64,000 nucleotides of DNA from an uncultured Verrucomicrobia subdivision 3 bacterium (GCA_903895255.1 CAITTG010000049.1:30080-94079); one strand, 5' to 3'. Counted from the stretch's first letter, positions 7,868 through 56,330 are shown. The notes: generated by a model not told the origin, from the letters alone. Numbers and translations are program-made.

Positions 7868-10351
7868 TCACCGCTGCAACCGATAAAAACTCATCGCCCC
7901 CGTGGTCAGCAGTGAAACCGAATAAACATTATTCGTCAGCACCGGTGCTGGCGCCACTGGGTTCCAGGTTCCAGTCGCTAAATTGGTAGTGGATTCCAGC
8001 GTGAACCCCACCGCCCACGACGGCCACGAAAACGCCAGACTGCCGGCGGCATGCGTCCAGTTCAATGCCACGGGCAGTGCCAGTTGATCGGGGCCAGCCT
8101 GCTCGTTGGCGGCAATCTCATTCGTAGTGAGGAGGCCGTCGTACAGCCGAAGTTCGTTGATGGAACCATTAAGGTAGGGGTCCGCGGCGAACAAGGAGCG
8201 GCCCACGAATGACCATGCGGTGCTGACCGTGTTGAATTTCGGCCACGCGCCCGTGAGCGATTGCTCCAGCACCCCGTTGGTATAAATCGCGGCGGAATTG
8301 TTGGTGGGATCCACCAGGCACACCACGTGTACCTTGCGGCCATCCAGGGTTCCGGGACTGTTCAGGATCGTGGTGCTGCTCGAACTCGACTCCATTTGCT
8401 GCTCCCCGAGGTTATTGTGCGGACTGAAAAAGAAATACTGAGTCCCGGTGGTGCCGGAAATATTGCCAAAATCCACCACCCGTGCCCAGTTGCCGTTCGC
8501 GCCGAACGTGGCCCAAAACTCCAGCGACACCGCCACCGAACCCGAGACCAGGCCGCCCGGAATTCCCATGTAAGTGCCAGTGGTCCCATCCAGACTGAGC
8601 GCGTTGTTGGTCACCACGGCATCTCCATACAGACTGCCATGCGCCATGCCGATGGCATCACGCGGGTTTCCCGTAAAGCTGTAACGGTGGGCCAGGGCGG
8701 GATGCGCGTAGGCCAGGGCCTGGATTTCCGTGGCGCTCAGCGCCCGGCCGAAAACCCGAAACGAACTGATTTCACCTCCGAAATAGGGATCCCCCGCAAA
8801 CTGGCTTTTGCCCAGATTGTTGTTATCCGCCAGCAACTGCCAGGGCCGGATGGTGAGGGCTGAATTGGTGGCGACCGGATACCCGTTCAAGTAGAGCAAA
8901 CCGGTCGTGCCATTGAGGCTGACGGCCACGTGGCACCAGGAATTCGAGGGCAGGGCAAACGGCGCATTAATCTGCTGCTCACCACCGTTGCCGTTGGTGG
9001 TGATGGCAAAGCGCAGGCCGCCCCCGTAGGCCGCGGGTGTGAGAAAGCAGTAGTTGGTGGTGCTCGCGCCCAAATCGAAGATGCGCTGCCAGGGGGCCCC
9101 GCCATTCCATTTCACCCAACCGGCGAAGGTGCTGGCGTTCGCGACCTCCAGCGGCATGGACAGGTAGTTGCTACTACCATCCAACCGCAGCACCCGGCCG
9201 CGGCCGGGCTCGTTGGTAAGCGTGGCGTTGCTTTTCAGGGTGCCATTGTAAAGGCCCAGGTGTTCATGGGCGTCCCGATTCAATGGGTAAAACGCGCTCC
9301 AATCATTGGTGACTTGGGGCCAGCCATCGGACGACCACGTAAGGTAATTCAGTCCCAAGGTGGCGACGCCATTGTTGAGCCCATCATAATAGTGGTAGGT
9401 AAACCAGTTGGTGCCCGCGTAGGTATAGATGCCCGCCTGACCCGGGCCGATGTAGCGGGCTGTGCTCTCGAGCACCATCGTGCCGCCGGCGTTGGTCAGG
9501 TTGATGCCATTCCGGTCAAAGTACGGGCCCTGGACCGTGGGGCTGCGGCCCACCCGGATATTATAGGTGCTGTCCACCCCCGCGCAGCAGCCGCCCCAAT
9601 TTTCAAAGAGGTAGTAATAACCGCCGTGCTGGTACAGGAAGGAAGCCTCCTCGGTGCTGCTAAAAAAATAAGGGCCATTGTTGGCCACCCGGTAAATCGG
9701 CGAGGTGGGCGAAAGGCGTTTGCCCGTCGTCGGATCCAATTGCATGATCAAAATCCCGTCCGAATAAGAGCCAAACGACATCCACACCGTGCCGTTGGTG
9801 TCCTGCAGTATGCTGGGATCAATGCAATTATATGCCGTCAGGTCGGTGGTGGCATTGGTGGCAAAATCCGGGTTCGACTGGATAATCTTGCCTTGATCCG
9901 TCCAGACCGGCGCGGTGAGTGAAGGCGAGGTGACCAGCCCGATGGCGGAATTAATGGTGCCCCATTCTGAGCAGCAATAATAGAGGTAGTATTTGCCATT
10001 CATGTAAACGACGTCGGGCGCCCAGAAGTAGCCGGTGAAACCGGGCACCGCATTGGTGGTCCACCCTGGCGGGCCGCCGGGAAACACCGGGCTGACGGCG
10101 GTCCAGTTGCGCAGGTCCGTGGAGGTCAGTCCGTCGATCCCCTGGCCATCGCCATAAACAAAAAAAGTGCTGCCCTGCTGGACGAGCGGGGAGGGGTCAT
10201 GAATGCCGGTGTTGCCCAGTACTGGTAGCTGGGCCTCGCTGGACCTTGGGATGAGCCACGCAAACGCCGCCAGCAAGAGAGTCACTGGCAAGGATCCCCG
10301 CCGCCAAGCGCAACCGGTTGGCCGCGATGATTTGCTCGTAAATAAGCTCAT
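7868..10351 (-). CDS. secreted GH43 (arabinanase-like) glycoside hydrolase with two LamG/ConA-like domains and a C-terminal FYRL module
   Basis: Signal peptide, then GH43 motifs (IHDPSPL, YFWAPDVVYMNGKYYLYY, DPSILQDTNGTVWMSFGSY). Two LamG-type blocks follow (LRLDGSSNYLSMP...WQRIFDLG; LSLDGTTGTYMGIP...WARVVDFG). It ends in ...ESTTNLATGTWNPV...MSFYRLQR. Confidence 0.88.
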   Translation of the reverse strand: MSLFTSKSSRPTGCAWRRGSLPVTLLLAAFAWLIPRSSEAQLPVLGNTGIHDPSPLVQQGSTFFVYGDGQGIDGLTSTDLRNWTAVSPVFPGGPPGWTTNAVPGFTGYFWAPDVVYMNGKYYLYYCCSEWGTINSAIGLVTSPSLTAPVWTDQGKIIQSNPDFATNATTDLTAYNCIDPSILQDTNGTVWMSFGSYSDGILIMQLDPTTGKRLSPTSPIYRVANNGPYFFSSTEEASFLYQHGGYYYLFENWGGCCAGVDSTYNIRVGRSPTVQGPYFDRNGINLTNAGGTMVLESTARYIGPGQAGIYTYAGTNWFTYHYYDGLNNGVATLGLNYLTWSSDGWPQVTNDWSAFYPLNRDAHEHLGLYNGTLKSNATLTNEPGRGRVLRLDGSSNYLSMPLEVANASTFAGWVKWNGGAPWQRIFDLGASTTNYCFLTPAAYGGGLRFAITTNGNGGEQQINAPFALPSNSWCHVAVSLNGTTGLLYLNGYPVATNSALTIRPWQLLADNNNLGKSQFAGDPYFGGEISSFRVFGRALSATEIQALAYAHPALAHRYSFTGNPRDAIGMAHGSLYGDAVVTNNALSLDGTTGTYMGIPGGLVSGSVAVSLEFWATFGANGNWARVVDFGNISGTTGTQYFFFSPHNNLGEQQMESSSSSTTILNSPGTLDGRKVHVVCLVDPTNNSAAIYTNGVLEQSLTGAWPKFNTVSTAWSFVGRSLFAADPYLNGSINELRLYDGLLTTNEIAANEQAGPDQLALPVALNWTHAAGSLAFSWPSWAVGFTLESTTNLATGTWNPVAPAPVLTNNVYSVSLLTTGAMSFYRLQR

Positions 10352-44190: not shown

Positions 44191-46029
44191 ATGCTGAACA
44201 CGAAGTCATTTTTGGCGGTGGATTTTGGGGCGGGCAGCCTCAAGCTGGCTGATTTTGAAACCAATGAGGTCGGCGGTCTGCGCCTCAAAAATTTCGCCAT
44301 CAAAGCCCTCGGCCTGGAAGGTTCCCAGGATGCCACCCGCGAAGCCACCGTTGTCAAGGCCCTCCAGGACACCCTCGCCGAACTGGGCCTCAAATCCAAA
44401 AACGTCAACGTCTGCGCCCCCGGCTTTCAAGTCTTTTCCAAGTTCGTCAAACTGCCCCCGGTGGATGCCGCCAAGGTCACCCAGATCATCCAATACGAGG
44501 CCCAGCAAAACGTGCCGTTCCCCCTCGCCGAGGTCGTCTGGGATTATCAAATTCTCGGCGCCGCCGCCAGTGGTGAACTCGAGGTCCTCCTCGTCGCCAT
44601 CAAATCCGACGTCGTCGAAGGCCTGTTTCGCGTGGCCGAAAAAGCCAAGCTGAAATTAACCCTCTGTGACGCCTCCCCGGCCGCCTTGTGCAACGCCTTC
44701 CGCTTCAATTACGGCGATCTGGAAGATTGCACCATGCTCCTGGACATTGGCGCCAAAACCAGCAACCTCCTCTTTTTTGAAAAAGGCAAGGTCTTCTCCC
44801 GCAGCATCAACCTCGGGGCCAATGCCATCACCCAGGATTTTGCCAACGATCAAAAATTAAAATTTCCCGACGCCGAGAAAATCAAAATCGCCGAGGGCTT
44901 TGTCAGCCTCGGCGGTGCTTACGAGGAACCCGAAAATCCGAACCAGGCCGCCATCTCCAAAATCGCCCGCCAGTTCATGACCAAACTGCACATTCAGGTC
45001 AACCAGACCCTGCAGTTCTATCGCGGTCAGCAGGGCGGCACCGCTCCCCAGCGCCTTTTCCTCTCCGGTGGTGCCTCCATCATGCCCTATACGGCCCAGT
45101 TTTTTGCCGAAAAACTGAACATCCCCGTCGAATATTTCAACCCCTTCCGCAACGTCCAGATTGATCCCTCCGTTAATTTGGAGGATCTCTCCCGCGTGGC
45201 TCATTCCCTCGGCGAAGTCGTCGGCCTCGGCCTCCGCAACCTCGCCAACTGCCCGGTGGAAATGAATCTGATGCCCGACAGCACCTTGCGCTGGCAGGCC
45301 TTCAATCAGAAAAAACCCTATTTCCTCGTCACCGTTTTCAGTCTCGTCTTCGTCGCTTTTACCACCGGCTACCTCTTCTCCAAGCTGGCCGATTTCAAGG
45401 CGGATCAGATCGACACGCTCAATCAGCAGATTGCTCCCAAAACCGCCAAGTCCGAGGCCTTCAAGGCCGCCATGGCCAAACTGGCGGAAAAACAAAAACA
45501 AGCCACTCAGATTTCCAATTACCTCTCCCAGCGATACTATTGGGGTGATGTTTGCGCCGAACTGCGCCGGGTCCTCATGGCCTCCGAGGAAAATGTCCGC
45601 GTCAAACTGTCCGCTCAAAAACCCAACGTTGATGTCGGCATCTGGATCGAGAGTATGATTACCGACCCCAATCTGGGCAATGCCGTCGGCGCCCCCGCCG
45701 CTGGTCCCGGCCCGTCCATGATGGGGATTGGCGGTCCCCGTGGCTTCATGGGTCGCGGCATGCCCATGCCCGCCCCGACTCCCGTCCCGGATGCCACCGC
45801 CGCCGCTGCCGGTTCCACCATCCAACTGGTGTGTCGCTCGGTCAATTTGTCCTCCGTGGATCCCTCCGCCAACACCGCCATCGCTTTTGAAGTGCAAAGC
45901 CAGCTCCAAAACAGTCATTTGTTTGATCCCAAGGCCACCGTGCTCTCGCCGACCATCACGACCGACGATGCGACCGGCACCTTCACTTTCGGCATCACCG
46001 TGGCGTTGCAAAATCCTCTGAAATTGTAA
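44191..46029 (+). CDS. pilM: PilM-like actin-fold ATPase fused to a PilN-like TM/coiled-coil segment (Amuc_1101-type)
   Basis: The N-terminus FLAVDFGAGSLKLADFE...QYEAQQNVPFPL...LLDIGAKTSNL...LSGGAS is the PilM/FtsA-like fold. It continues with TM YFLVTVFSLVFVAFTTGYLF and a coiled coil. Confidence 0.8.
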   Translation: MLNTKSFLAVDFGAGSLKLADFETNEVGGLRLKNFAIKALGLEGSQDATREATVVKALQDTLAELGLKSKNVNVCAPGFQVFSKFVKLPPVDAAKVTQIIQYEAQQNVPFPLAEVVWDYQILGAAASGELEVLLVAIKSDVVEGLFRVAEKAKLKLTLCDASPAALCNAFRFNYGDLEDCTMLLDIGAKTSNLLFFEKGKVFSRSINLGANAITQDFANDQKLKFPDAEKIKIAEGFVSLGGAYEEPENPNQAAISKIARQFMTKLHIQVNQTLQFYRGQQGGTAPQRLFLSGGASIMPYTAQFFAEKLNIPVEYFNPFRNVQIDPSVNLEDLSRVAHSLGEVVGLGLRNLANCPVEMNLMPDSTLRWQAFNQKKPYFLVTVFSLVFVAFTTGYLFSKLADFKADQIDTLNQQIAPKTAKSEAFKAAMAKLAEKQKQATQISNYLSQRYYWGDVCAELRRVLMASEENVRVKLSAQKPNVDVGIWIESMITDPNLGNAVGAPAAGPGPSMMGIGGPRGFMGRGMPMPAPTPVPDATAAAAGSTIQLVCRSVNLSSVDPSANTAIAFEVQSQLQNSHLFDPKATVLSPTITTDDATGTFTFGITVALQNPLKL

Positions 46030-46031
46030 AT

Positions 46032-46982
46032 ATGGCCTGGATTAAGCGAAATTTATTCTTCTTCATTGGTGGCGTGGTGGCCTTGGCCTTGCTGGGCGCG
46101 GCGGGCTATTACAATTATACCAATTGGAGCCGCAACTCGGACATGCTGGACAAGCTCAAGGAAATTTACGGCACCCTCGGAGCCCTCAATGACCCCGCTG
46201 CCAACCCGGGCAATGACAAAATCAACAAGATTCAACAAGCCAAGGACCAGACTGCCCAGTTGAAAGACTGGCTCGACCAGACCGCCGTTTGGTTTGCCCC
46301 CATCGCCCCTATTCCGCCCTCCACCCCCGCCGCTCCCGTTTCCAGTGAAACCTACGCCGCCGCCCTCCGCCGCACCATCAGCCTCATGCAGCATGAGGCC
46401 GAGGCCGCCAATGTCGTGGTGCCGCCCGACTACGGTTTCTCCTTCGAGGCCGAGCGCTCTCTGGTCAAGTTTTCCCCCGGCAGTCTCGATGGGCTCGCCG
46501 TGCAGTTGGGCGAGGTGAAATCCATCTCTGAAGTCCTGTTCGCCGCCGGCGTCAATGAATTGCAATCCATTCAACGGGTGCGCGTGTCCGATGATGATGC
46601 CAACGGCCCCCAGGGTGATTATATCGGCGATCAATCCGTCACCAACGACCAGGTGGTCCTTACCCCCTACGTCGTCACCATTCAAAGTTTCGGTCCGGAA
46701 ATTGCCCGCATCTTCTCGGGCTTTGCCGGCTCCCCCCACTGCTTCATCATTAAGAGCATCAATGTGCAGCCCGCCACCGGCAACAACAACGCGCCCGGTC
46801 CAATGGGCCTGCCCCCCGGGCAGGAACCGCGCATGCTGCGCGGCCGGGGCGAATTTCTGCCGCCCATGCAAAACCCGCAGGCGCCGCTCAATGAAAAGGG
46901 CGGCCTGACCACGCTCCTCAAGGAGCAGCTCCTGCACGTCAGCCTGGAAGTTGAAATCGTAAAATTGCAGCCCAAGAATTAA
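46032..46982 (+). CDS. Amuc_1100-like pilus-associated protein (occupies the PilO position)
   Basis: 316 aa with an N-terminal TM anchor, a coiled coil and a Pro-rich insert. The C-terminal strand LLHVSLEVEIVKLQPK resembles the recalled Akkermansia Amuc_1100 (317 aa; ...VFVQVSLNLVHFNQPK). Gene context is the same. The assignment rests on memory, not on a search. Confidence 0.55.
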   Translation: MAWIKRNLFFFIGGVVALALLGAAGYYNYTNWSRNSDMLDKLKEIYGTLGALNDPAANPGNDKINKIQQAKDQTAQLKDWLDQTAVWFAPIAPIPPSTPAAPVSSETYAAALRRTISLMQHEAEAANVVVPPDYGFSFEAERSLVKFSPGSLDGLAVQLGEVKSISEVLFAAGVNELQSIQRVRVSDDDANGPQGDYIGDQSVTNDQVVLTPYVVTIQSFGPEIARIFSGFAGSPHCFIIKSINVQPATGNNNAPGPMGLPPGQEPRMLRGRGEFLPPMQNPQAPLNEKGGLTTLLKEQLLHVSLEVEIVKLQPKN

Positions 46983-46992
46983 GCTTAAGCAA

Positions 46993-47778
46993 ATGGATTT
47001 CATCAAAAAAAATTACGAAAAGGTCATTCTCAGTCTGGTGTTGCTGGGCGTGGTGGGTGCCCTCGTCGCTCTGCCATTTGTCATTCAAAAGGACAAGGAT
47101 GACGTGCAAGCCATGACTGATTCCGTCATCAGCCATCCCGTGAAACCTTTGGACCCCCTGGATCTGAGCACTCAAAACAACACCTTGACCCGGTTGCAAA
47201 ATCCCTACGACCTGGATTTCTCCACCACCAACAAGTTGTTTAACCCGATGACTTGGAAAAAGAATGCCGCTGGCGATTTGATTAAAATCACCACCGGGCA
47301 TGAAATTGATGCCGAGGCCGCCGAAGTCACCAAAATCACCCCCCTCTATCTCATCCTCTCGCTGGAAAATGTCGAAACCAATCTCGAAATTCGTTACGTG
47401 ATTGGCATCGAGCGTCAATTTGTCGCCTCCCGCTCCCAGCGCCATCAAACCACCGTCGCCTCCGTTGGTGAAAAAAAGCCGCTCTTCACCATCACCCAGG
47501 CCAAGGGCGATCCGGTCAACCCGGATGAACTCCTCTTGAAACTGGCCGATACCGGTGAAATCGTTTCCATCGCCAAAGGCAAACCCTTCCAGCGCGCCGA
47601 CGCCTTCACCGCCGATTTAAAATTTGATCCGGAGAAAAAATCCTTTCTTAATCGCTCGGTCGGCGCCGTCTTAACCTTCGGTGAGGAAACGTACAATATC
47701 GTTGCCATTCATCAAAACGAAGTGATACTATCCGCTGAATCAAACCAGAAAAAAACGATTTTGCAATACCCACGATAA
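46993..47778 (+). CDS. hypothetical TM-anchored protein (PilP/Amuc_1099 position)
   Basis: 261 aa with N-terminal TM VILSLVLLGVVGALVALPFVI. It lies between the Amuc_1100-like gene and the secretin. Confidence 0.55.
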   Translation: MDFIKKNYEKVILSLVLLGVVGALVALPFVIQKDKDDVQAMTDSVISHPVKPLDPLDLSTQNNTLTRLQNPYDLDFSTTNKLFNPMTWKKNAAGDLIKITTGHEIDAEAAEVTKITPLYLILSLENVETNLEIRYVIGIERQFVASRSQRHQTTVASVGEKKPLFTITQAKGDPVNPDELLLKLADTGEIVSIAKGKPFQRADAFTADLKFDPEKKSFLNRSVGAVLTFGEETYNIVAIHQNEVILSAESNQKKTILQYPR

Positions 47779-47833: not shown

Positions 47834-50083
47834 ATGACAAAAGCAGTATTCTTGCCGCTCGGCCTCATTTTCCTCCTGGCTGCCGCTTCTCCCGCCTCGG
47901 CCCAGACCAGCCCCACGGATGTCGCCGTCAATGAAGCGGTCCTGCGCCAGTCCTATACCATTGTCCTGCGCCAGAAACTGGTCGCTGCCAAGTCAGCCGA
48001 ATCCAAGGGTGATTTGGTGGACGCCGCCAAGCTCTACCAGGAAGCCACCAGCCTCGCCCAGCAAATCGGCTCCGGTATCGATTTGGAAACCAGCCAGGCC
48101 ATTTCCGGCCTCGCCCGCACCCGTTTGACCCTCGCCCGCCAGGCCGAGGCCGGCCATGATTACCTCGAGGCCGACAAGCAAATCAACCAGGTTTTGCACG
48201 CCGATCCCAAGAATCCCGATGCCCTCGCGCTCAAACAGCAAAACGATCAGTTAATCGCCCAGAGCAAAGGTCACACGCCCGATCAGGCCACTATCGAGCA
48301 AATCCCCATCGTCAAAAATCAAAAAGTTGAGGCCGGTACCCTCGTGCAAGACGGCAAACTTCTCTATGAAATGGGCAAGTTGGAAGAATCCGAGGCCAAG
48401 CTGAAGCAAGCCCTGGCCCTGGACCCGGATAATGTCGCCGCTTTTTACTACCTCAACTTGATTCAACAGGCTCAGTACGCCCGCTCCGTGGCCAACCATA
48501 CCGAGGATACCCAAACCCGCATGCAACAGGTGGAAAAGCAGTGGGTGCTCCCCAAGAATCAGAATTTGATGATTGGCAATCCCTACGCCACCACCAACCT
48601 CGTTTACACTGGCCCCGGGCGTCAGGAAATTGTCAGTAAATTGGATCGCATTCACTTGGACACGGTTTCTTATGACGGCCTCCCCCTGAGCGAAGTGCTC
48701 CGCAGTCTCTCCGAACAGTCCAAAATTCGTGATCCCCAAAAAATTGGCGTAAATTTCCTGATTAACCCCAACGCCGATCTCTCCAGCACCGTGGAAACCA
48801 CCCCCTTGCAGGGTGGCTTCCCAGGCGAGGCTCGCCGCGGTGCGGTGGATCCGGCCACCGGTTTGCCCCAGGCTGATGCCGCCGCCGCCGCTGCGCCCGA
48901 GCAGGTCGATGTCGGTTCCGTGATCGTCAAGCTGAACCTGAATAATGTCAGCCTCGCGGAAGTGCTCGACGCCATTGTTCTCGTCGCCGATCACCCCATC
49001 AAATATTCCATTCAAGATTTTGCCGTCGTCTTCTCTTCCAAAGCCGCCGATGCCGCGCCTCTCTTCATGCGCACGTTCAAGGTGGATGCGAATACCTTCT
49101 TCCAAGGTTTGGAAAGTGTCAATTCCACGACTTTCGGTGGCACCAGCGGTAATGGCAGCAGCAGCGGTGGCGGCGGCGGTGGTGGTGGTGGTGGCGGCGG
49201 CGGCGGTGGCGGCCAGCAAAGCGGCGGAGCCGTGGTTCCCGTCGTTGACATGTCTCCCGGCGCCAGCCAGCTTCGCAACACCCAGAACGGCGGCGGTGGC
49301 GGTGGTCAGCAACAAAATGGCGGCGGTTTCGGCGGTAACACCGGCGGCGGTGCGGCCGGTGGCGCCGGTGGCGCGGCCGGCGGTTGGAACGTCAGCGGTT
49401 CCCAAGGCGGCGTGAATTTCCTCACGGTCAAACGCACCACGGACGAAATGGGCATTGTTGTCCGCAGTTTCTTTGCGGTGATGGGCGTCAATCTTAATCC
49501 GCCCAAAGCCCTGTTCTTCAATGATCGTCTCGGCTTGCTCTTCGTCAAGGCCACCGAATCCGACTTGGACACCATTGAACGCGCCATTGAGACCTTGAAC
49601 CAGCTCTCCCCGCAGGTTCATATCAAAGCCCGCTTCATCGAAGTGCAGCAAAATGACAGCACCGCGCTGGGTTTTGACTGGTATTTGGGCCAGTTCGGTG
49701 GTTCCGTGGTCGCCCAGGGCGGCACCGCCCCCTCTTTGAACACCGGCTCTGTCTCTGGCGCCAATCCCGTCGGCGCCTTTCCCGGCACCTCCGCCGCGAC
49801 CACCATCGCCCCTGCGGCCACCGACCAGTTGATTACCGGCGGCTTGCAAAACTCCGGCCCCACCGTCGGCACCATCACCGGCATTTTGACCAACCCCAAT
49901 TTCCGGGTTGCCATCCACGCGCTGGAACAGCGCTCCGGGGTGGAGGCCCTGGCCGAACCCGAGGTCACCACCACCAGCGGTCGCCAGACCCAAATGCGGG
50001 CCACCTCCCTCATCACCGTCGTAACCGGCGTTAACTTCCAGCAGGGCAACCCCGGCTCCACCACCGGCACCACCACCCCCTGA
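47834..50083 (+). CDS. secretin (PilQ/GspD family), N-terminal fragment: TPR-like region, N-domains, Gly-rich linker and first half of the secretin domain
   Basis: Signal peptide. The secretin core begins at VHIKARFIEVQQNDSTALGFDWYL...FRVAIHALEQRSGVEALAEPEVTTTSGRQTQM. The ORF stops at TGA 50081-50083, before the conserved C-terminal half. Confidence 0.85.
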   Translation: MTKAVFLPLGLIFLLAAASPASAQTSPTDVAVNEAVLRQSYTIVLRQKLVAAKSAESKGDLVDAAKLYQEATSLAQQIGSGIDLETSQAISGLARTRLTLARQAEAGHDYLEADKQINQVLHADPKNPDALALKQQNDQLIAQSKGHTPDQATIEQIPIVKNQKVEAGTLVQDGKLLYEMGKLEESEAKLKQALALDPDNVAAFYYLNLIQQAQYARSVANHTEDTQTRMQQVEKQWVLPKNQNLMIGNPYATTNLVYTGPGRQEIVSKLDRIHLDTVSYDGLPLSEVLRSLSEQSKIRDPQKIGVNFLINPNADLSSTVETTPLQGGFPGEARRGAVDPATGLPQADAAAAAAPEQVDVGSVIVKLNLNNVSLAEVLDAIVLVADHPIKYSIQDFAVVFSSKAADAAPLFMRTFKVDANTFFQGLESVNSTTFGGTSGNGSSSGGGGGGGGGGGGGGGGQQSGGAVVPVVDMSPGASQLRNTQNGGGGGGQQQNGGGFGGNTGGGAAGGAGGAAGGWNVSGSQGGVNFLTVKRTTDEMGIVVRSFFAVMGVNLNPPKALFFNDRLGLLFVKATESDLDTIERAIETLNQLSPQVHIKARFIEVQQNDSTALGFDWYLGQFGGSVVAQGGTAPSLNTGSVSGANPVGAFPGTSAATTIAPAATDQLITGGLQNSGPTVGTITGILTNPNFRVAIHALEQRSGVEALAEPEVTTTSGRQTQMRATSLITVVTGVNFQQGNPGSTTGTTTP
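49166..49213 (+). repeat. (GGY)16 trinucleotide tract encoding Gly16 inside the secretin linker
   Basis: ggt ggc ggc ggc ggt ggt ggt ggt ggt ggc ggc ggc ggc ggt ggc ggc. Further Gly/Gln/Asn-rich sequence follows. Confidence 0.9.
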
Positions 50084-50106
50084 TGAAACCCTCGCCGGCA
50101 TTATTA

Positions 50107-50256
50107 ACTTGTGATTTACCAATACTGGAATCCCTTACTTGTGATTTGCCAATACTGGAATCCCTAACTTGTCATTTACCATTACTGGAAACCTTAACTT
50201 GTGATTTACCAATACTGGAATCCTTAGCTTGTCATTTACCATTACTGGAATCCCCC
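50107..50256. repeat. 5 x 30-bp head-to-tail AT-rich tandem repeat
   Basis: Units: ACTTGTGATTTACCAATACTGGAATCCCTT / ...TTGCC...CCCTA / ACTTGTCATTTACCATTACTGGAAACCTTA / ...TCCTTA / GCTTGTCATTTACCATTACTGGAATCCCCC. There are no spacers. Confidence 0.95.
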
Positions 50257-50291
50257 GTATTTTCTACATTTTCTTAATTTTTTGGCGAAAT

Positions 50292-50948
50292 ATGAAAAGA
50301 TTTTATCAACCCAAGTTAATCACCCCCCTCCTCCCCCTCTGCGCCGTTCTGGTATCCGCTCCAGCAATGGCTCAGGTGGTGCAACAGGCAGTTCAAACCT
50401 CCGCCATTACCTTCACCACCCAAACGGTTGAAACCGGTCCGATTTTGGACGTTGTCCCCTATGTTTTGTCTGATGGCTACACAATCAACCTCACACTCAT
50501 CCCCAACTTGACCGAATTTAACGGGTACGATACGCCGCCAAATATTCCAAGCGTAACGGGAAACCTCAACGTGGTTCAACTGCCAATTGTATTGCCAAAT
50601 TTTTCAGTACGTGAAGTTGTCACCACGGTTAACGTATGGGATAACCAAACAGTGGTTCTTGGCGGTCTGATTTCCTCATCAATTCAAACCACCAAGGACA
50701 AAGTGCCCGTGCTGGGTGATTTGCCCATGCTGGGCACGCTCTTTCAAAGCCAAAGTAAAACTGCAATCAAAAATAATCTGATGATTTTTGTCACTTCATC
50801 AATTGTAGATCCTGCTGGTAACCGCGTGCATTCTGATGATGAATTGCCTTTTGCGCAAACCGGGATTCCACCGCAGCCACCGAACTCGAGCCATATTTCT
50901 GAGACGGTGGAAACTGTGCATTCTCTGCCTAGTGCCCCTAATAATTAA
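50292..50948 (+). CDS. secretin C-terminal half as a separate ORF with its own signal-peptide-like N-terminus
   Basis: MKRFYQPKLITPLLPLCAVLVSAPAMAQ, then ...TGPILDVVPYVLSDGYTINLTLIP...VWDNQTVVLGGLI...KVPVLGDLPMLGTLFQS...NLMIFVTSSIVDP, the canonical secretin C-terminus. Codon use is AT-richer. Confidence 0.8.
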   Translation: MKRFYQPKLITPLLPLCAVLVSAPAMAQVVQQAVQTSAITFTTQTVETGPILDVVPYVLSDGYTINLTLIPNLTEFNGYDTPPNIPSVTGNLNVVQLPIVLPNFSVREVVTTVNVWDNQTVVLGGLISSSIQTTKDKVPVLGDLPMLGTLFQSQSKTAIKNNLMIFVTSSIVDPAGNRVHSDDELPFAQTGIPPQPPNSSHISETVETVHSLPSAPNN

Positions 50949-50972
50949 TGTTCAGTCTGATTATTTTTTATT

Positions 50973-51856
50973 GTGGGGCGATTGCTGATCATAGACGGTC
51001 ATGCTTACGCTTACAGGGCGTTTTTTGCAATTCGTTCTTTGAGGGGGGGGGTGGGGGGGCGACGAATGCGATTTTCGGATTTATTAAAATCGTTGAAAAA
51101 TTGCTAAAATCCCTGAAACCAGAGTATCTGGCGGTGGTGTGGGACGGGGGTTTGAGCGCGGAACGGTTGGTTTTGCTGCCGGAATACAAGGCGCAGCGGC
51201 CGGCGATGCCGGATGATTTGCGGGTGCAATTTGATCCGATCATCGATTATTTGCGGGCGATGGGATTTTGTTCCCTGTGCCGGGATGGCGTTGAGGCGGA
51301 TGACTATATTGCCAGCCTGGCGCGGCAGGCGGAACGCTCGGGTTTGGCGGTGGTGATCGCCAGTGCGGACAAAGATTTTATGCAGTTGGTCTCGCCGGCC
51401 ATCGGGTTGTCCAACCCGAATGACAAGACCAACCGGATTTGGACGCGGGTGGAAGTCCGGGAAAAGACCGGGGTGGAACCGGAACAGATTGTGGACTGGC
51501 TGAGTTTAATGGGCGACGCGGTGGACAACATACCCGGTGTGCCAGGGGTGGGGCCAAAAAGGGCCGCAGAGCTGCTGGGCCAATTTGGCTCGGTGGCTGG
51601 TTTGTTGGAACGCATGGGCGAAGTCAAGCCCGCAGGCTTGCGTGAACGGGTGACCGCGGCGGCGGCGGTGATTCGCCGAAATTTGGAAATGGTGCGGTTG
51701 CGGGACGATTTGCCCTGTGAAATAGTGGCCAGCCATTGCCGGATCGGGGTTCCAGCGGTGGATAAATTGCGTGAATTGTACGGGCGATGGGAATTTAAGG
51801 GCATGCTGGCAGCGTTGGATGCAGCCGCGCCCGGCGGACAGCAGATTTTAATTTGA
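50973..51856 (+). pseudogene. stand-alone 5'-3' exonuclease (Pol I N-terminal/FEN-like) with an apparent 1-nt frameshift in a G9-T-G7 tract
   Basis: GTG 50973 gives VGRLLIIDGHAYAYRAFFAIRSLRGGVGG in one frame. From 51059 the adjacent frame gives ATNAIFGF...GVEADDYIASLA...SADKDFMQLV...GDAVDNIPGVPGVGPKRAAELL. One extra G would join them. This could be a homopolymer sequencing error. Confidence 0.75.
51043..51059. repeat. homopolymeric G9-T-G7 tract
   Basis: GGGGGGGGGTGGGGGGG read directly from the sequence, at the frameshift site. Confidence 0.95.
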
Positions 51857-52001
51857 AATGAGTGCGCAGAATTGTGAAAGTTCGGGGTGGGTGCTGGCAA
51901 AGGCCCGGACCCGGTTGTTGATACAGCCGGTTCCGCCTATTTGCATGGTAAGTTTTGGACAAACCCCCAAAGTTACATTACCTTTTAATATTAACTCTTT
52001 T

Positions 52002-53972
52002 ATGTCGTTGTCGAAGCTGGCCTGTGTGGCTGCCTTGCTCCTTGGCGGTGTCGTCAATTTGGCGTTGTCGTGCCAGGGCCAGACGAATTATTATTCGGCC
52101 AGTGGTTCGGAGTACGCCCCGGTGGGTTCGCTGCCGGGCGATCAAATGTTTCCGGATGCGGCCATCACCCCGACGGGTGGTTTTGTGGTATGGCAGGATA
52201 ATCGCACGGATGGCAGTGGTTGGGGGATCAGTGCGGAACGTTTGGACAGCACCTTCAACGGCACTTTAAGTTCCTTCCGGGTGAATGTGCAGGGAACGAA
52301 TGACCAGGAAAACGCCCGGGTGGCGCTGTTAAAAAATGGCGGGGCGGCGTTTGTGTGGCAGGGGGGCTTGCGGGGAAAACAGCATATTTATGCCCGTTTT
52401 CTCACGCCGACAAACACTTGGTTGACCAAGACCGACCTGGTGGTGAGCACTTTTACCAATACGTTTCAAATCAACCCGGCTCTGACGGTGCTCAATAACA
52501 GCAATGTCGTGGTGGTTTGGGCCAGTTACAATCAAGCGGGTGGCAAAAGCTTGCTGGATGTTTATGGTTCGATTCTCTCCCCCACCGGGCTGGTGGTGAG
52601 CAATGCCTTTTTAATCAATCAATTTACCAATTACAATCAACGCACGCCAGCCGTGGCGGCTTTGGCCAATGGCGGGTTTGTGGTGACCTGGGTATCGGAG
52701 CAGCAACGGAACCCGGCGATTTCCAGTGGCAGCCAGGCGGCGGTTGCCGCCAGCATCGTTTCACCGAGTGTGGATATTTATGCCCGGCTTTACCGCAGCA
52801 ACGGGCTGGCGGTGGCCGGAGAATTTTTGGTGAACAGCAACCTGGCACCGTGTGCGAATCCGAGTGTGGCCGGGGCCGCGGATGGCAGTTTCATGATCGC
52901 CTGGTCCCAGCACGATCCGTTGATGGCGACGAATGGTTGGGATGTGTTTGCCCGGCCTTATTCCAGCAGCGGAGCCGGCGGCCCGGTGGTGCAGGTCAAC
53001 CAGCAGGCTTATGGTGATCAATACGCCCCGAAAATGAAAGCGATTGGATTGGATTACCTGGTGGTGTTTACGAGCTTGGGCGAGGATGGTTCGCGGGAGG
53101 GTGTGTTTGGCCAGTTCGTTCATGCCAACGGAGCTTTGATTGGCAGCGAATTTCAGGTCAACACGACCTGGGTGGGGCAGCAAATGCAACCGGCGGTGGC
53201 TGCGGATGGCACCGCTTGGTTTGCGGTGGTTTGGACCAGCTACTCCGGTCCGACAGTCGGGTTTGATCTATACGCGCAGCGCTACGCGAACGTTTCCGCG
53301 ATTTTGCAGCCGATGGGGACGCCGTTTGTTTACGCGCCGTTTAACCTGGTTAGCAACAAATATGTGCCCCAGTTAAAGGTTTCCTGGCCCCCGGTTCTGG
53401 GGATTGCGGTGACTAATTACGAGGTTTATCTGGACGGATCCGCCAGCGCCATCACCAATTGGCTGGGCACCACCAATCAATGGACGATGGGAGTGGCAAA
53501 TGGTTTGACCAACGGGGCGACGCATTCGTTCCAAGTGGCCTATCAGACCACGGATGGCCGCCAGTCGCCCCTTTCGCCGGCAGCCACCGCCGCTGCCTGG
53601 ATGGGATTAAATTATCACGGGATACCGGATGAATGGATCAGTTATTATTACGGTGACGCCAGCGCCGGCTGGCCGACAAATGTAAATGCACCGTTGATCC
53701 CGGGTGGCATGAGCCTTTACAACGTGTTCCTGAGTGGCGGGGATCCGACGGATGCCTCCACCTGGCTGACGACATACCTGACGAAGGGGGCCGGGGGGCT
53801 GTACTTGAACTGGAATCCCCAGCCGGGTTTGACTTATCAAGTGCAAACGACCAGTGATCTACGGAACTGGATTAATTTGGGTTCCCCGCGCTTTGCGGCG
53901 GCCACCACGGATTCAATTTTTGTCGGCGGCACACCGGTTGGTTATTACCGGGTGTTGTTGCTACGCCAATGA
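52002..53972 (+). CDS. secreted protein: seven ~50-aa propeller-like repeats, an FN3-like domain and the C-terminal YYRV module
   Basis: ATG 52002 gives the signal peptide MSLSKLACVAALLLGGVVNLALS. Seven repeats follow the pattern EF.VN...Q..PAVA...G.FVV.W.S....DV(Y/F)A(R/Q)(L/R)(Y/F). It ends in ...VQTTSDLRNWINLGSP...GYYRVLLLRQ. Confidence 0.75.
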   Translation: MSLSKLACVAALLLGGVVNLALSCQGQTNYYSASGSEYAPVGSLPGDQMFPDAAITPTGGFVVWQDNRTDGSGWGISAERLDSTFNGTLSSFRVNVQGTNDQENARVALLKNGGAAFVWQGGLRGKQHIYARFLTPTNTWLTKTDLVVSTFTNTFQINPALTVLNNSNVVVVWASYNQAGGKSLLDVYGSILSPTGLVVSNAFLINQFTNYNQRTPAVAALANGGFVVTWVSEQQRNPAISSGSQAAVAASIVSPSVDIYARLYRSNGLAVAGEFLVNSNLAPCANPSVAGAADGSFMIAWSQHDPLMATNGWDVFARPYSSSGAGGPVVQVNQQAYGDQYAPKMKAIGLDYLVVFTSLGEDGSREGVFGQFVHANGALIGSEFQVNTTWVGQQMQPAVAADGTAWFAVVWTSYSGPTVGFDLYAQRYANVSAILQPMGTPFVYAPFNLVSNKYVPQLKVSWPPVLGIAVTNYEVYLDGSASAITNWLGTTNQWTMGVANGLTNGATHSFQVAYQTTDGRQSPLSPAATAAAWMGLNYHGIPDEWISYYYGDASAGWPTNVNAPLIPGGMSLYNVFLSGGDPTDASTWLTTYLTKGAGGLYLNWNPQPGLTYQVQTTSDLRNWINLGSPRFAAATTDSIFVGGTPVGYYRVLLLRQ

Positions 53973-53978
53973 TTTTGT

Positions 53979-56330
53979 ATGCAGCGAATAATTAAAAAAT
54001 GTTTTTGGATGTTCGTGTTGGCGGCTGGCTTGCAAAGCAGCCGGGCCTTCTCCCTGTTGGGGCCGGAGACGCCCTCCAATGGCGCGGACAACTGGCAGAC
54101 GGCGGTGATTGGTTATCATCTGGCCTATGCGGACAGCAGCATTCCAGGCGGGCCGATGTATCTGGGTGATATTGGCGGGCCCCGGAACCTGGGTGAGGAA
54201 TACCGCCGCAATGTGCCGATTGTGTATTACACTTACGACACGAGCTTTTTGGGGTTTTTCGGATCGAATGGCGTGGCGGCCGTGGACAGCGCGGTGGCTT
54301 TGATGAACACCATTACGAATGTGGATCAAATTGACCCCTCGCAATACCCACTGGACTCCCAACAATACAACTATGAGGCGGAGGCTTTGTATCTGACCGA
54401 TTTAAAATCAACCGCGCTCCATTTGCTGGTGGAGCAATTGGGCCTGGCCCAACCGGAGCGCTTCACTTACACGCTGCAAGAGCGGATTTTGCCGCCGGGC
54501 GGAAAATGCCCGGTCAACGAGGAATATTTGGTGGTCCAACGGAATTATGAATACACCAACACCGCGCTGAACCAAATTCAGTATTCGAGCTATGTGAACA
54601 ACGTGCTCTATACCTATGAAATTTTGGAGATTTGCAGCGGCCCTGATCCGCTGGCGGTAACGCTGCCGTTTTCGGTGGACCCGCTGGGCGACCAGTACAC
54701 GGCAGTGGCGGACAGCAGTTATGAGCCTTTTGGCGGTCTGCAAATTGGCGGATTTTACAACACGTTCACCCGGGACGACATTGCGGGGTTGAAATATTTG
54801 ATGAGCACCAACAACATCAACTTTGAGCGCGCCACGCCGGGCAGTTTATTGTTTGATGTTTCGACAAATTTCGCGGGCGGCCAGACGTTGTTCCCGGTCA
54901 ACCCTAATGTTCCGTTGGGTGTGGGGACCTACAATTACGGCACCCTTATGGCGGCTGCGGCGGGGACCCCGCCCGCTTTGTTGCAAGCCTTGTTTCCGGG
55001 TTTGGTGGTATCCAGCTCGCAAAATTATTTCATTGTTACGAATGTACCGACCGTGAGCGCCTATTACGGTCCGCCGCCGGCCAAATCACCTTACGGGTCG
55101 CCGCCAGTATTGGTGGTGGTGACCAACTATACGCCCACCCCGTTGCAGCAATATGTGACGAAGTTTGCCAATGTCGTGACGCAATATTCTTCCACGAGCT
55201 CCCCGGCGATTTTGCAAACCATTACCACCGCGCCGCCGGCCAAGTCACCATACGGGACGCCCTCGGTGAGCACCACGAACTACAGCCGGGTGACTTTAAA
55301 CGGGGTGCCTTCGGGCAGCTTTTATATCCTGCCTAATTTTGGAACCAATCTGTGTCCGCCGGGAATTTTGTACACGTTGTTGACCAACGTGATTTACACC
55401 ACCAACCTGATCACCTCGGCCACGACGAATGTGCTGGCGAACACGAACCTGATTACCTCCAGCAATAGTGCTTACTCGACCACGATGAGTTTGATTACCT
55501 GGTACACGAACTACACTTATGTGACCTATGCGGTGAATTGCGCGCAGACGGCGAATGCCACCAGTTTGTACGAGGGCATCCAAGGGGTGCAATTTGTGCG
55601 GGAGGATTATGATTCGTTGCTCGGCCAGTTTTTTCAGCCGGTCACCAATGGATACAGCATGAATGTGGTAACCAACAATCATGTTTACACCCGGCATTTT
55701 GACCGCACGGTGGCAGCTCCCGAGATTTTGTTCACTGCCTATGATTTTGTGGCGGCGAACACCTTCAACGGCACGGTGTCCCGCTCGGTGCCAAACTGGG
55801 ATGAAAGCCAGTTGGTGGCGGGGGGGCTGGCGGGGCCCGGGGTGATTGATCCCGCGGCTAATTTTCAATTCAACGGCAATGGCTCGGCGTTTTGGAACGG
55901 TTATGATGTGAACGATTTCCTCACGCCCGGGGTGGTTTATGGCGAGACCACCCAAGTGCCTTCGCTGGCCTGGGCATCCTTTGATGAATCCACCAACGAC
56001 CCGGTGGTTTACCCCAATGGCACAAGCCTGGCCAACCTGGCGAGCCAGGTGTTGATTCAAGTCACGCCTACCAGCCTGCCAAATGGCACTAATAATGTGG
56101 CCTATTCCGTTCAGTTTAGTGCCAGCGCACCGCGCCTGACCCCGCCATTCACCTGGTCCGCCGGCGGCCTGCCGCCCGGATTGACCATGTCGAGCACCGG
56201 CCTGCTTTCGGGAACGCCCATCAACCAAACCGGGAACTATAACAGTCCACTGGTCTATGACATCACGGTGGTTCTGACGGATGCACTGTCCAATTCCGTG
56301 CAGTGGACCTACCCAATTACAATTCAATAA
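53979..56330 (+). CDS. secreted hypothetical protein with a C-terminal putative-Ig (He_PIG/cadherin-like) domain
   Basis: Signal peptide MFVLAAGLQSSRA. N/T/Y-rich body with the duplicated motif PPAKSPYG(S/T)P. The C-terminus is SLPNGTNNVAYSVQFSAS...FTWSAGGLPPGLTMSSTGLLSGTP. It starts 7 nt after the upstream stop. Confidence 0.7.
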   Translation: MQRIIKKCFWMFVLAAGLQSSRAFSLLGPETPSNGADNWQTAVIGYHLAYADSSIPGGPMYLGDIGGPRNLGEEYRRNVPIVYYTYDTSFLGFFGSNGVAAVDSAVALMNTITNVDQIDPSQYPLDSQQYNYEAEALYLTDLKSTALHLLVEQLGLAQPERFTYTLQERILPPGGKCPVNEEYLVVQRNYEYTNTALNQIQYSSYVNNVLYTYEILEICSGPDPLAVTLPFSVDPLGDQYTAVADSSYEPFGGLQIGGFYNTFTRDDIAGLKYLMSTNNINFERATPGSLLFDVSTNFAGGQTLFPVNPNVPLGVGTYNYGTLMAAAAGTPPALLQALFPGLVVSSSQNYFIVTNVPTVSAYYGPPPAKSPYGSPPVLVVVTNYTPTPLQQYVTKFANVVTQYSSTSSPAILQTITTAPPAKSPYGTPSVSTTNYSRVTLNGVPSGSFYILPNFGTNLCPPGILYTLLTNVIYTTNLITSATTNVLANTNLITSSNSAYSTTMSLITWYTNYTYVTYAVNCAQTANATSLYEGIQGVQFVREDYDSLLGQFFQPVTNGYSMNVVTNNHVYTRHFDRTVAAPEILFTAYDFVAANTFNGTVSRSVPNWDESQLVAGGLAGPGVIDPAANFQFNGNGSAFWNGYDVNDFLTPGVVYGETTQVPSLAWASFDESTNDPVVYPNGTSLANLASQVLIQVTPTSLPNGTNNVAYSVQFSASAPRLTPPFTWSAGGLPPGLTMSSTGLLSGTPINQTGNYNSPLVYDITVVLTDALSNSVQWTYPITIQ

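Follow-up and report, generated by a model that had tools for sequence, protein, structure and literature searches.

A 64,000-nucleotide stretch of DNA from an uncultured Verrucomicrobia subdivision 3 bacterium (GCA_903895255.1, CAITTG010000049.1:30080-94079), referred to here as the window, carries a pilus-like gene cluster whose secretin appears to be encoded by two open reading frames (ORFs) instead of one. The initial annotation placed them at 47834-50083 and 50292-50948, about 210 bp apart. All of these coordinates hold, and the distance from the ORF1 stop to the ORF2 ATG is 208 nt. The features of the split gene are given below, with positions counted from the first letter of the window.

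47834..50083, plus strand: ORF1, the putative secretin N-fragment, 749 aa (ATG at 47834 to TGA at 50081-50083).
50084..50291, no strand assigned: spacer of 208 nt with a GC content of 0.37, containing a tandem repeat and, directly before the ATG of ORF2, the motif TTGGCGAAAT.
50105..50254, no strand assigned: tandem repeat of 5 x 30 bp, unit TAACTTGTGATTTACCAATACTGGAATCCC (TRF, Tandem Repeats Finder, score 230, 87% matches).
50292..50948, plus strand: ORF2, the putative secretin C-fragment, 218 aa (ATG at 50292 to TAA at 50946-50948).

ORF1 begins with a signal peptide (47834-47902; MTKAVFLPLGLIFLLAAASPASA, with Q after the cleavage point), followed by tetratricopeptide repeats (TPR, matched by Pfam), a Gly-rich low-complexity region, an N-domain and the first part of the secretin core. 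Its C-terminal residues are GNPGSTTGTTTP, directly followed by the stop. The mechanical start of ORF2 is TTG 50229, whereas homologues begin at ATG 50292. From this ATG the N-terminus reads MKRFYQPKLITPLLPLCAVLVSAPAMA, again with Q after the cleavage point, so that the signal peptide spans 50292-50372 and the mature part 50373-50945. The Gly-rich stretch of ORF1 lies at 49135-49400 (residues ~435-520), in the periplasmic part, and contains GGGGGGGGGGGGGG and GGAAGGAGGAAGG; a region of this type is also found in fused homologues, where it varies in length and carries runs of Asn or Ser.

The Pfam Secretin profile PF00263 matches ORF2 only, at profile positions 40-169 of 169 (E=7e-28), and no match to it was found in ORF1 at E<=0.01. 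In the fused homologue P0288 the same profile is covered from 1 to 169. Neither ORF therefore holds a complete C-terminal PF00263 domain within one polypeptide. Three NCBIfam profiles are divided between the two products: GspD TIGR02517 is matched by ORF1 at 312-469 and by ORF2 at 475-591, MshL TIGR02519 at 4-161 and 161-290, and Amuc_1098_fam NF042912 at 18-379 (200.1 bits) and 646-804 (129.9 bits). The equivalog cutoff of the last family, 750 bits, is reached by neither ORF. As the profile segments of ORF1 and ORF2 adjoin, no core element is lost or duplicated. A search of the 64-kb window found no second secretin-like sequence within it.

For alignment and modelling, the last 213 residues of ORF1 were joined to the mature part of ORF2. 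Aligned with 11 fused homologues, this concatenated sequence is collinear over the last 400 residues at 62-68% identity, and nothing is missing or repeated. Whether the halves abut without loss or duplication when aligned to full-length homologues was a question raised by the initial annotation, and both the profiles and the fused homologues answer that they do. Jointly, ORF1 and ORF2 contain the full collinear set of secretin core elements according to the profiles, the fused homologues and the structural model described below, and together they appear to represent one Amuc_1098/PilQ-type secretin.

The junction of the pair falls, in the alignment of fused homologues, in a hypervariable loop rich in G, S, T and N. 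The fused locus L040 reads FSFQSPPASTSTGGGG TTINNPGPSAIT across the junction, and the split locus L044 reads FTFQQGTAATTTTATQ, followed by the stop, the spacer, a signal peptide and then VVANPGTSSIT. In the secretin pIV of phage f1, Gate 1 is the loop between the hinge glycines G267 and G297, with a disordered tip (residues 275-289) at the centre of the pore (PMC8563730). In the alignment, the hinge glycine G453 of V. cholerae GspD (mutated in 5WQ9) corresponds to the Thr of 'RAT', 27 residues ahead of the ORF1 C-terminus. The equivalent of the second hinge Gly is the G of 'ETGP', 22 residues into the mature part of ORF2. AlphaFold2 with a 12-sequence alignment gave a predicted local distance difference test score (pLDDT) of 37.7, and this model was set aside. 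A rerun with 113 sequences yielded a monomer model of the artificial fusion with a pLDDT of 79.8 and a predicted template modelling score (pTM) of 0.75. In this model, the strands 189-200 and 224-244 flank a lower-confidence loop (201-223), and the junction lies after residue 213, in the middle of the loop. The corresponding features of the window are the following.

50006..50080, plus strand: predicted ascending Gate 1 arm (strand 50006-50041) and first half of the tip loop (50042-50080, to the C-terminus of ORF1), from AlphaFold2 strand 189-200, loop 201-213 and the G453 alignment.
50373..50465, plus strand: predicted second half of the tip loop (50373-50402) and descending arm or inner-barrel strand (50403-50465, with the hinge-equivalent Gly of ETGP), from AlphaFold2 loop 214-223 and strand 224-244.

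Because the hinge mapping from GspD and pIV and the position of the loop in the AlphaFold2 model bracket the junction, the chain is predicted to be cut at the tip of the Gate 1 hairpin, within the beta-barrel core. The portion of the core in the N-fragment would then comprise about two outer-barrel strands, the lip region and one inner strand, which is the ascending Gate 1 arm. The C-fragment would hold the descending arm, the remaining inner barrel, Gate 2 and the last outer-barrel strands. The assignment of strands to the inner or the outer barrel follows, by analogy, the order of elements described for pIV and is provisional. A fold search of the PDB with the model returned 36 significant matches, and all of them are secretins.

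The initial annotation had also pointed to a separate signal peptide on the second half, and this pattern turned out to be conserved. In every C-fragment, a basic n-region leads into a hydrophobic stretch, after which small residues precede a conserved Gln (AMA|Q, ARA|Q, AQA|Q or the like). In the alignment, the sequence of this peptide varies freely and the n/h/AxA pattern is retained. Of 79 distinct split loci, 77 pass a crude signal-peptide rule, and the remaining two are also signal-peptide-like. No lipobox was found in the C-fragment signal peptides. The C-fragment thus seems to carry a Sec (type I) signal peptide that is conserved among homologues.

The same arrangement is found well beyond the window. 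In the metagenome assembly ERZ1426854, identical products of 749 aa and 218 aa are separated by the same 208-nt gap. ERZ1426854 is not the same sequence as the window, because its exonuclease downstream of ORF2 was called as an intact product of 294 aa, whereas the window has a frameshift in this gene. A further record, ERZ18629978, matches the window at 100% identity across 14.6 kb and therefore provides no independent support. At E<=1e-5, ORF2 has 2636 homologues; among the best 120 (64-92% identity), every one has a length of 196-244 aa. With ORF1, most matches are 725-790 aa long and lack PF00263, and about 10% are 910-968 aa long and contain it. One predicted protein, P0121 (1901 aa), has five separate stretches that match the C-fragment, the best of them being 1240-1406; this could be a fusion of several secretins or an artefact of gene calling.

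We then scanned GTDB with one genome per species and found a relative in 329 genomes, of which the best 80 were examined. These loci were sampled from soil, bog and lake, and most carry the label Verrucomicrobia subdivision 3 or Limisphaerales, with other labels in a few record titles. The secretin is split at the same place in 75 of the best 80 species loci, so that the look for the same split in related genomes suggested by the initial annotation gave a clear result, and it is fused in the other five. The spacers of relatives are mostly 6-32 nt long, and the two genes share a frame in some loci but not in others. In the split loci examined, the genes for the N- and C-fragments are always adjacent and co-oriented. 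The order PilM-like gene, Amuc_1100-like gene, 261-aa gene, N-fragment (745-777 aa), C-fragment (205-223 aa) and 5'-3' exonuclease is conserved in L003 (a 4.6-Mb contig), L004, L006 and L009. In three loci, L016 (~3700 of CAVWHM010000027.1, where ALEQR reads AL*QR), L026 and L075, the N-fragment gene has an extra in-frame stop or frameshift, which could be either a sequencing error or true pseudogenisation. The long spacers measured in these three loci were discarded as artefacts of the upstream stops or frameshifts; they are not repeats.

In comparison with the closest relative, L009, the N-fragment has a ratio of non-synonymous to synonymous substitution rates (dN/dS) of 0.089, and its last 250 codons have one of 0.069. 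The mature C-fragment has a dN/dS of 0.023 and the second signal peptide one of 0.15. Across many species, purifying selection preserves the two genes as well as the second signal peptide.

The tandem repeat in the spacer, which the initial annotation did not mention, occupies 150 of the 208 bases of the gap and is unique in the window (0 matches expected). The motif directly ahead of the ORF2 ATG is kept in close relatives. At the same site, L009 (8594-8675) has repeat units of 18-20 bp, and L010 (1-91) and L011 (1-109) have units of 15 bp, with both contigs ending inside the repeats; L006, L007 and L012 have spacers of 21-24 nt without a repeat. The units appear unrelated across three close relatives, and relatives at a slightly greater distance lack them; the repeat has the appearance of a hypervariable minisatellite whose intergenic site is fixed. 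The 5 x 30-bp repeat is a younger, lineage-specific overlay on the split. No sigma-70-like promoter and no intrinsic terminator were found in the spacer. A 64-aa ORF at 50083-50277 (LTCDLPILES five times), whose ATG overlaps the ORF1 stop as TGATG, was rejected as a by-product of the repeat. It is unlikely to be a gene, given that the repeats of relatives differ or are absent and the ORF is not conserved.

It is likely that the pair is a conserved two-gene Amuc_1098/PilQ-type secretin of an Amuc_1100-type pilus-like cluster in Limisphaerales (Verrucomicrobia subdivision 3). Compared with single-chain homologues, a stop codon, a short spacer, a start codon and a Sec signal peptide have been inserted in the variable tip of the Gate 1 loop. 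In the proposed mechanism, both chains would be exported separately by Sec and would pair in the periplasm through beta-strand complementation. The N-fragment would supply about two outer strands, the lip and one inner strand, and the C-fragment three inner strands, Gate 2 and two outer strands. Oligomers of these pairs would then form a normal channel with a double wall, and every Gate 1 hairpin in it would carry a nick at the tip. As the Gate 1 tip is disordered in solved secretins, it is the one site in the core where a break should be harmless. One possibility for the origin of the insertion is a tandem gene duplication followed by complementary deletions, which would also have supplied the second signal peptide.

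Several points weigh against this explanation. The joint assembly of the two chains is something we infer from sequence and model, and the Gate 1 assignment is a prediction drawn from a sequence alignment plus one AlphaFold2 model. The global TM-scores (template modelling scores) of that model to solved protomers are low, 0.3-0.54, which is to be expected because a free monomer model was compared with protomers in rings. The spacer of the window is unusually long at 208 nt against 6-32 nt in most relatives, and for this reason the two genes may be less tightly coupled here than in relatives. In a neighbour-joining tree of the N and C parts, which carries no support values, the fused forms are basal and a few are nested inside the split clade. 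Such an unsupported tree is compatible with one origin of the split and occasional precise re-fusions, or with several origins.

A broken secretin gene, or two organisms joined by the assembler, had been listed by the initial annotation among three explanations of the locus. The GC discontinuity does start at the junction, a homopolymer frameshift is present 1 kb downstream in the same assembly, and the contigs of relatives break inside the repeats. Against this stand the same two proteins and gap in ERZ1426854, the 75 species genomes that carry the split with intact ORFs, the same layout on a single 4.6-Mb contig, the conserved signal peptide and the dN/dS values of 0.02-0.09; we consider a pseudogene or chimera extremely improbable, and this option is rejected. 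Programmed recoding, either by stop readthrough or by frameshifting, could make one full-length secretin from two ORFs, and in about 40% of the loci the ORFs share a frame and are only 6-30 nt apart. The frames differ in other loci, however, and spacer lengths vary between 6 and 208 nt. Every ORF2 retains an ATG of its own, a readthrough product would have a hydrophobic signal peptide inside its gate loop, and the spacer RNA of the window has no stable fold (z = +0.76) and no Rfam match that would point to a recoding element. We give recoding almost no weight. It might also be that the fragments have separate functions, the C-fragment being a minimal channel or lone actor and the N-fragment a periplasmic TPR or pilotin-like factor. 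Databases label the N-fragment only as a TPR or hypothetical protein, and rhizobial RhcC1, the N part of a known split secretin, is expressed independently of the rest of the type III secretion system (T3SS), with an extra function proposed for it (PMC3973906). But the last ~90 residues of the N-fragment, which form secretin-core strands, are as conserved as in fused homologues, the C-fragment by itself would be short of one inner strand and roughly half the strands of the outer barrel, and the two genes are always found side by side in one orientation. Separate functions thus seem improbable. A working two-piece channel, rather than a broken gene, is most likely on the sequence evidence. The functional two-polypeptide secretin, which was the first of the initial explanations, is supported by the conserved split, the purifying selection and the conserved signal peptide.

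The remaining initial explanation was a replacement of the 3' end by a foreign cassette. The difference in codon usage between the halves, which the initial annotation had pointed out, is real. The G+C content at third codon positions (GC3) is 0.72 in ORF1 (0.80 in its last 200 codons), 0.49 in ORF2 and 0.62-0.80 in neighbouring genes. The difference between ORF2 and the end of ORF1, -0.29, is an extreme outlier and the largest anomaly among 84 related loci (median +0.03), and the GC content is 0.44-0.50 over ~50000-51100 compared with 0.55-0.69 on both sides. The C-fragment gene, the spacer and the first ~50 exonuclease codons (about 50084-51130) could thus have been recombined from a lower-GC relative, and same-split relatives of low overall GC do exist (L006, GC 0.50). 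The GC3 anomaly, however, is common to the closest relatives L009 (C-fragment 8724-9389; 0.52 vs 0.63-0.69) and L010 (168-824; 0.42 vs 0.64-0.73). A recombination test against L010 showed flat nucleotide identity of ~0.8 across ORF2 and its flanks without a breakpoint, and ORF1 and ORF2 have the same nearest relatives. Because of these three observations, a recent foreign replacement in this genome alone appears unlikely. Between close relatives, the proteins encoded by ORF2 are 90-95% identical and yet its synonymous sites have reached saturation; this high synonymous divergence (dS) could reflect a different history of ORF2 but is equally explained by loss of the GC3 bias in a very constrained protein. 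A local mutational effect, GC-biased gene conversion or a lag behind a genome-wide rise in GC would fit the anomaly equally well. Either an older replacement in an ancestor of the subclade or a local compositional effect may account for it. Overall, we regard a cassette replacement as possible but rather unlikely. It cannot account for the split, which long predates this genome, and would explain the codon discontinuity only, so that it is compatible with a conserved two-gene secretin. The AT-shifted codons of ORF2 are, like the repeat, a younger, lineage-specific overlay.

The break at Gate 1 could in addition be adaptive, such that a nicked channel of 24-30 chains would gate or assemble differently and, in the subclade of the window, the spacer minisatellite would set the ratio of N- to C-fragment by tuning or phase variation. 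We see only a slim chance that this is so. If true, the nick might allow easier opening for a bulky Amuc_1100-type fibre, for example, or assembly might be governed by how much of the small C-fragment is supplied.

The secretin pair is embedded in the following genes.

44191..46029, plus strand: PilM-like protein (Amuc_1101 family), the first gene of the cluster (Pfam PilM_2 E=9e-39; NCBIfam Amuc_1101_fam 475 bits), syntenic in L003, L006 and L009.
46032..46982, plus strand: Amuc_1100-family pilus-like protein (NCBIfam Amuc_1100_fam E=8e-12; PF28028 is recorded on the same protein in public contigs).
46993..47778, plus strand: conserved gene of 261 aa in the position of Amuc_1099; a gene of 261-262 aa is present in all relatives examined.
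50973..51856, plus strand: 5'-3' exonuclease (GTG start at 50973), a conserved neighbour that is not part of the secretin.

The 261-aa gene has no match in Pfam or NCBIfam and a dN/dS of 0.11 relative to L009. The exonuclease gene is frameshifted in a G9-T-G7 run (51043-51059) that codes for a run of Gly and is one base shorter than in L010 and L011; in ERZ1426854, which represents the same organism, the 294-aa product is intact. Calls of this gene range from 227 to 302 aa across the assemblies of relatives, and the frameshift is probably a homopolymer error or a variable tract. Further 3', at 51858-56330 and beyond (L001 5687-14633), lie several large conserved genes of 656-1017 aa without a family match, and then a Calx-beta/DUF5122 repeat protein of 5372 aa. 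These genes are syntenic in relatives.

Secretins are among the largest outer-membrane channels, and their folding and gating are still debated. The split secretin described here is predicted to be cut through the gate, within the barrel core, and this form is kept throughout a large clade. A natural cut at the Gate 1 tip would mean that a secretin core can be built from two separately exported chains. It would mark the Gate 1 tip as a permissive site for engineering and provide a handle on the order of assembly and the mechanics of the gate. The split also bears on annotation. Hundreds of subdivision 3 genomes label the N-fragment 'TPR repeat protein' or 'hypothetical' and the C-fragment 'GspD'. 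With these labels, and with both scores far short of the Amuc_1098 equivalog cutoff, the pilus-like machinery gives the impression of being incomplete or pseudogenised, which it probably is not. The cluster corresponds to the Amuc_1098-1102 locus of Akkermansia, in which there is biomedical interest. The finding is thus relevant both to work on secretins and outer-membrane assembly and to the annotation of Verrucomicrobia genomes.

The closest known system is Amuc_1098 (PilQ) of A. muciniphila, a single outer-membrane protein of 907 residues with N-terminal TPR and a secretin domain at 650-876 (PMC4960237). The pair in the window has the same architecture of signal peptide, TPR, Gly-rich region, N-domain and secretin core, and its cluster also contains an Amuc_1101-like PilM and an Amuc_1100-like protein. 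Amuc_1098 is one chain, whereas here the tip of Gate 1 is cut and a second signal peptide is added. The pair therefore appears to be the split counterpart of the Amuc_1098 family, with the single-chain form as the probable ancestral state. GspD, PilQ, InvG and f1 pIV share the fold and the order of elements, and the break in the window corresponds to the variable Gate 1 tip that is disordered in pIV (PMC8563730). Unlike the pair in the window, they are all single polypeptides. The first Gate 1 hinge Gly of GspD (G453) and pIV (G267) is Thr in the family of the window, and the Gate 1 loop of this family is longer and of low complexity.

The initial annotation knew of no description of a two-polypeptide secretin. 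This does not hold in general, as the split secretin RhcC1/RhcC2 is known from rhizobial and P. syringae T3SS-2 clusters, where its significance is unknown (PMC3574062, PMC3973906). It holds in so far as that split lies between domains. For comparison of the domains, the sequences of RhcC1/NolW and RhcC2 were taken from pNGR234a. NGR234 RhcC1/NolW (234 aa) contains only N0 and Secretin_N, and RhcC2 (475 aa) contains a complete PF00263 (1-169/169) and its own N-domains. In both systems, separate genes encode the N part and the C part of a secretin, and the arrangement is conserved in a clade. The rhizobial barrel, however, is a single chain, while the cut in the window lies at PF00263 position ~40. 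The rhizobial genes also lie apart and belong to a T3SS, whereas those of the window are adjacent and part of a cluster resembling type IV pili. RhcC2 (Y4xJ; L094 12093-14096, that is pNGR234a 96093-98096) has the domains T2SS-T3SS_pil_N, BON and full Secretin, a make-up of the Tad/Cpa type, and the gene after it is annotated as a CpaD-family pilus assembly protein. Because of these domains and this neighbour, rhizobial RhcC2 has the look of an entire CpaC-like secretin and not of an HrcC fragment. A literature search for a secretin split within a domain found nothing beyond the rhizobial case, its coverage being incomplete and no proof of novelty.

An engineered parallel is found in OmpA. In 1996, Koebnik reportedly observed that split OmpA variants assemble in vivo when each fragment has a signal sequence. 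As proposed for the secretin pair, separately exported barrel fragments can complement each other if the cut is in a loop. The OmpA variants are laboratory constructs of monomeric barrels, whereas the window holds a natural and conserved split in what would be a double-barrel channel of 12-15 subunits.

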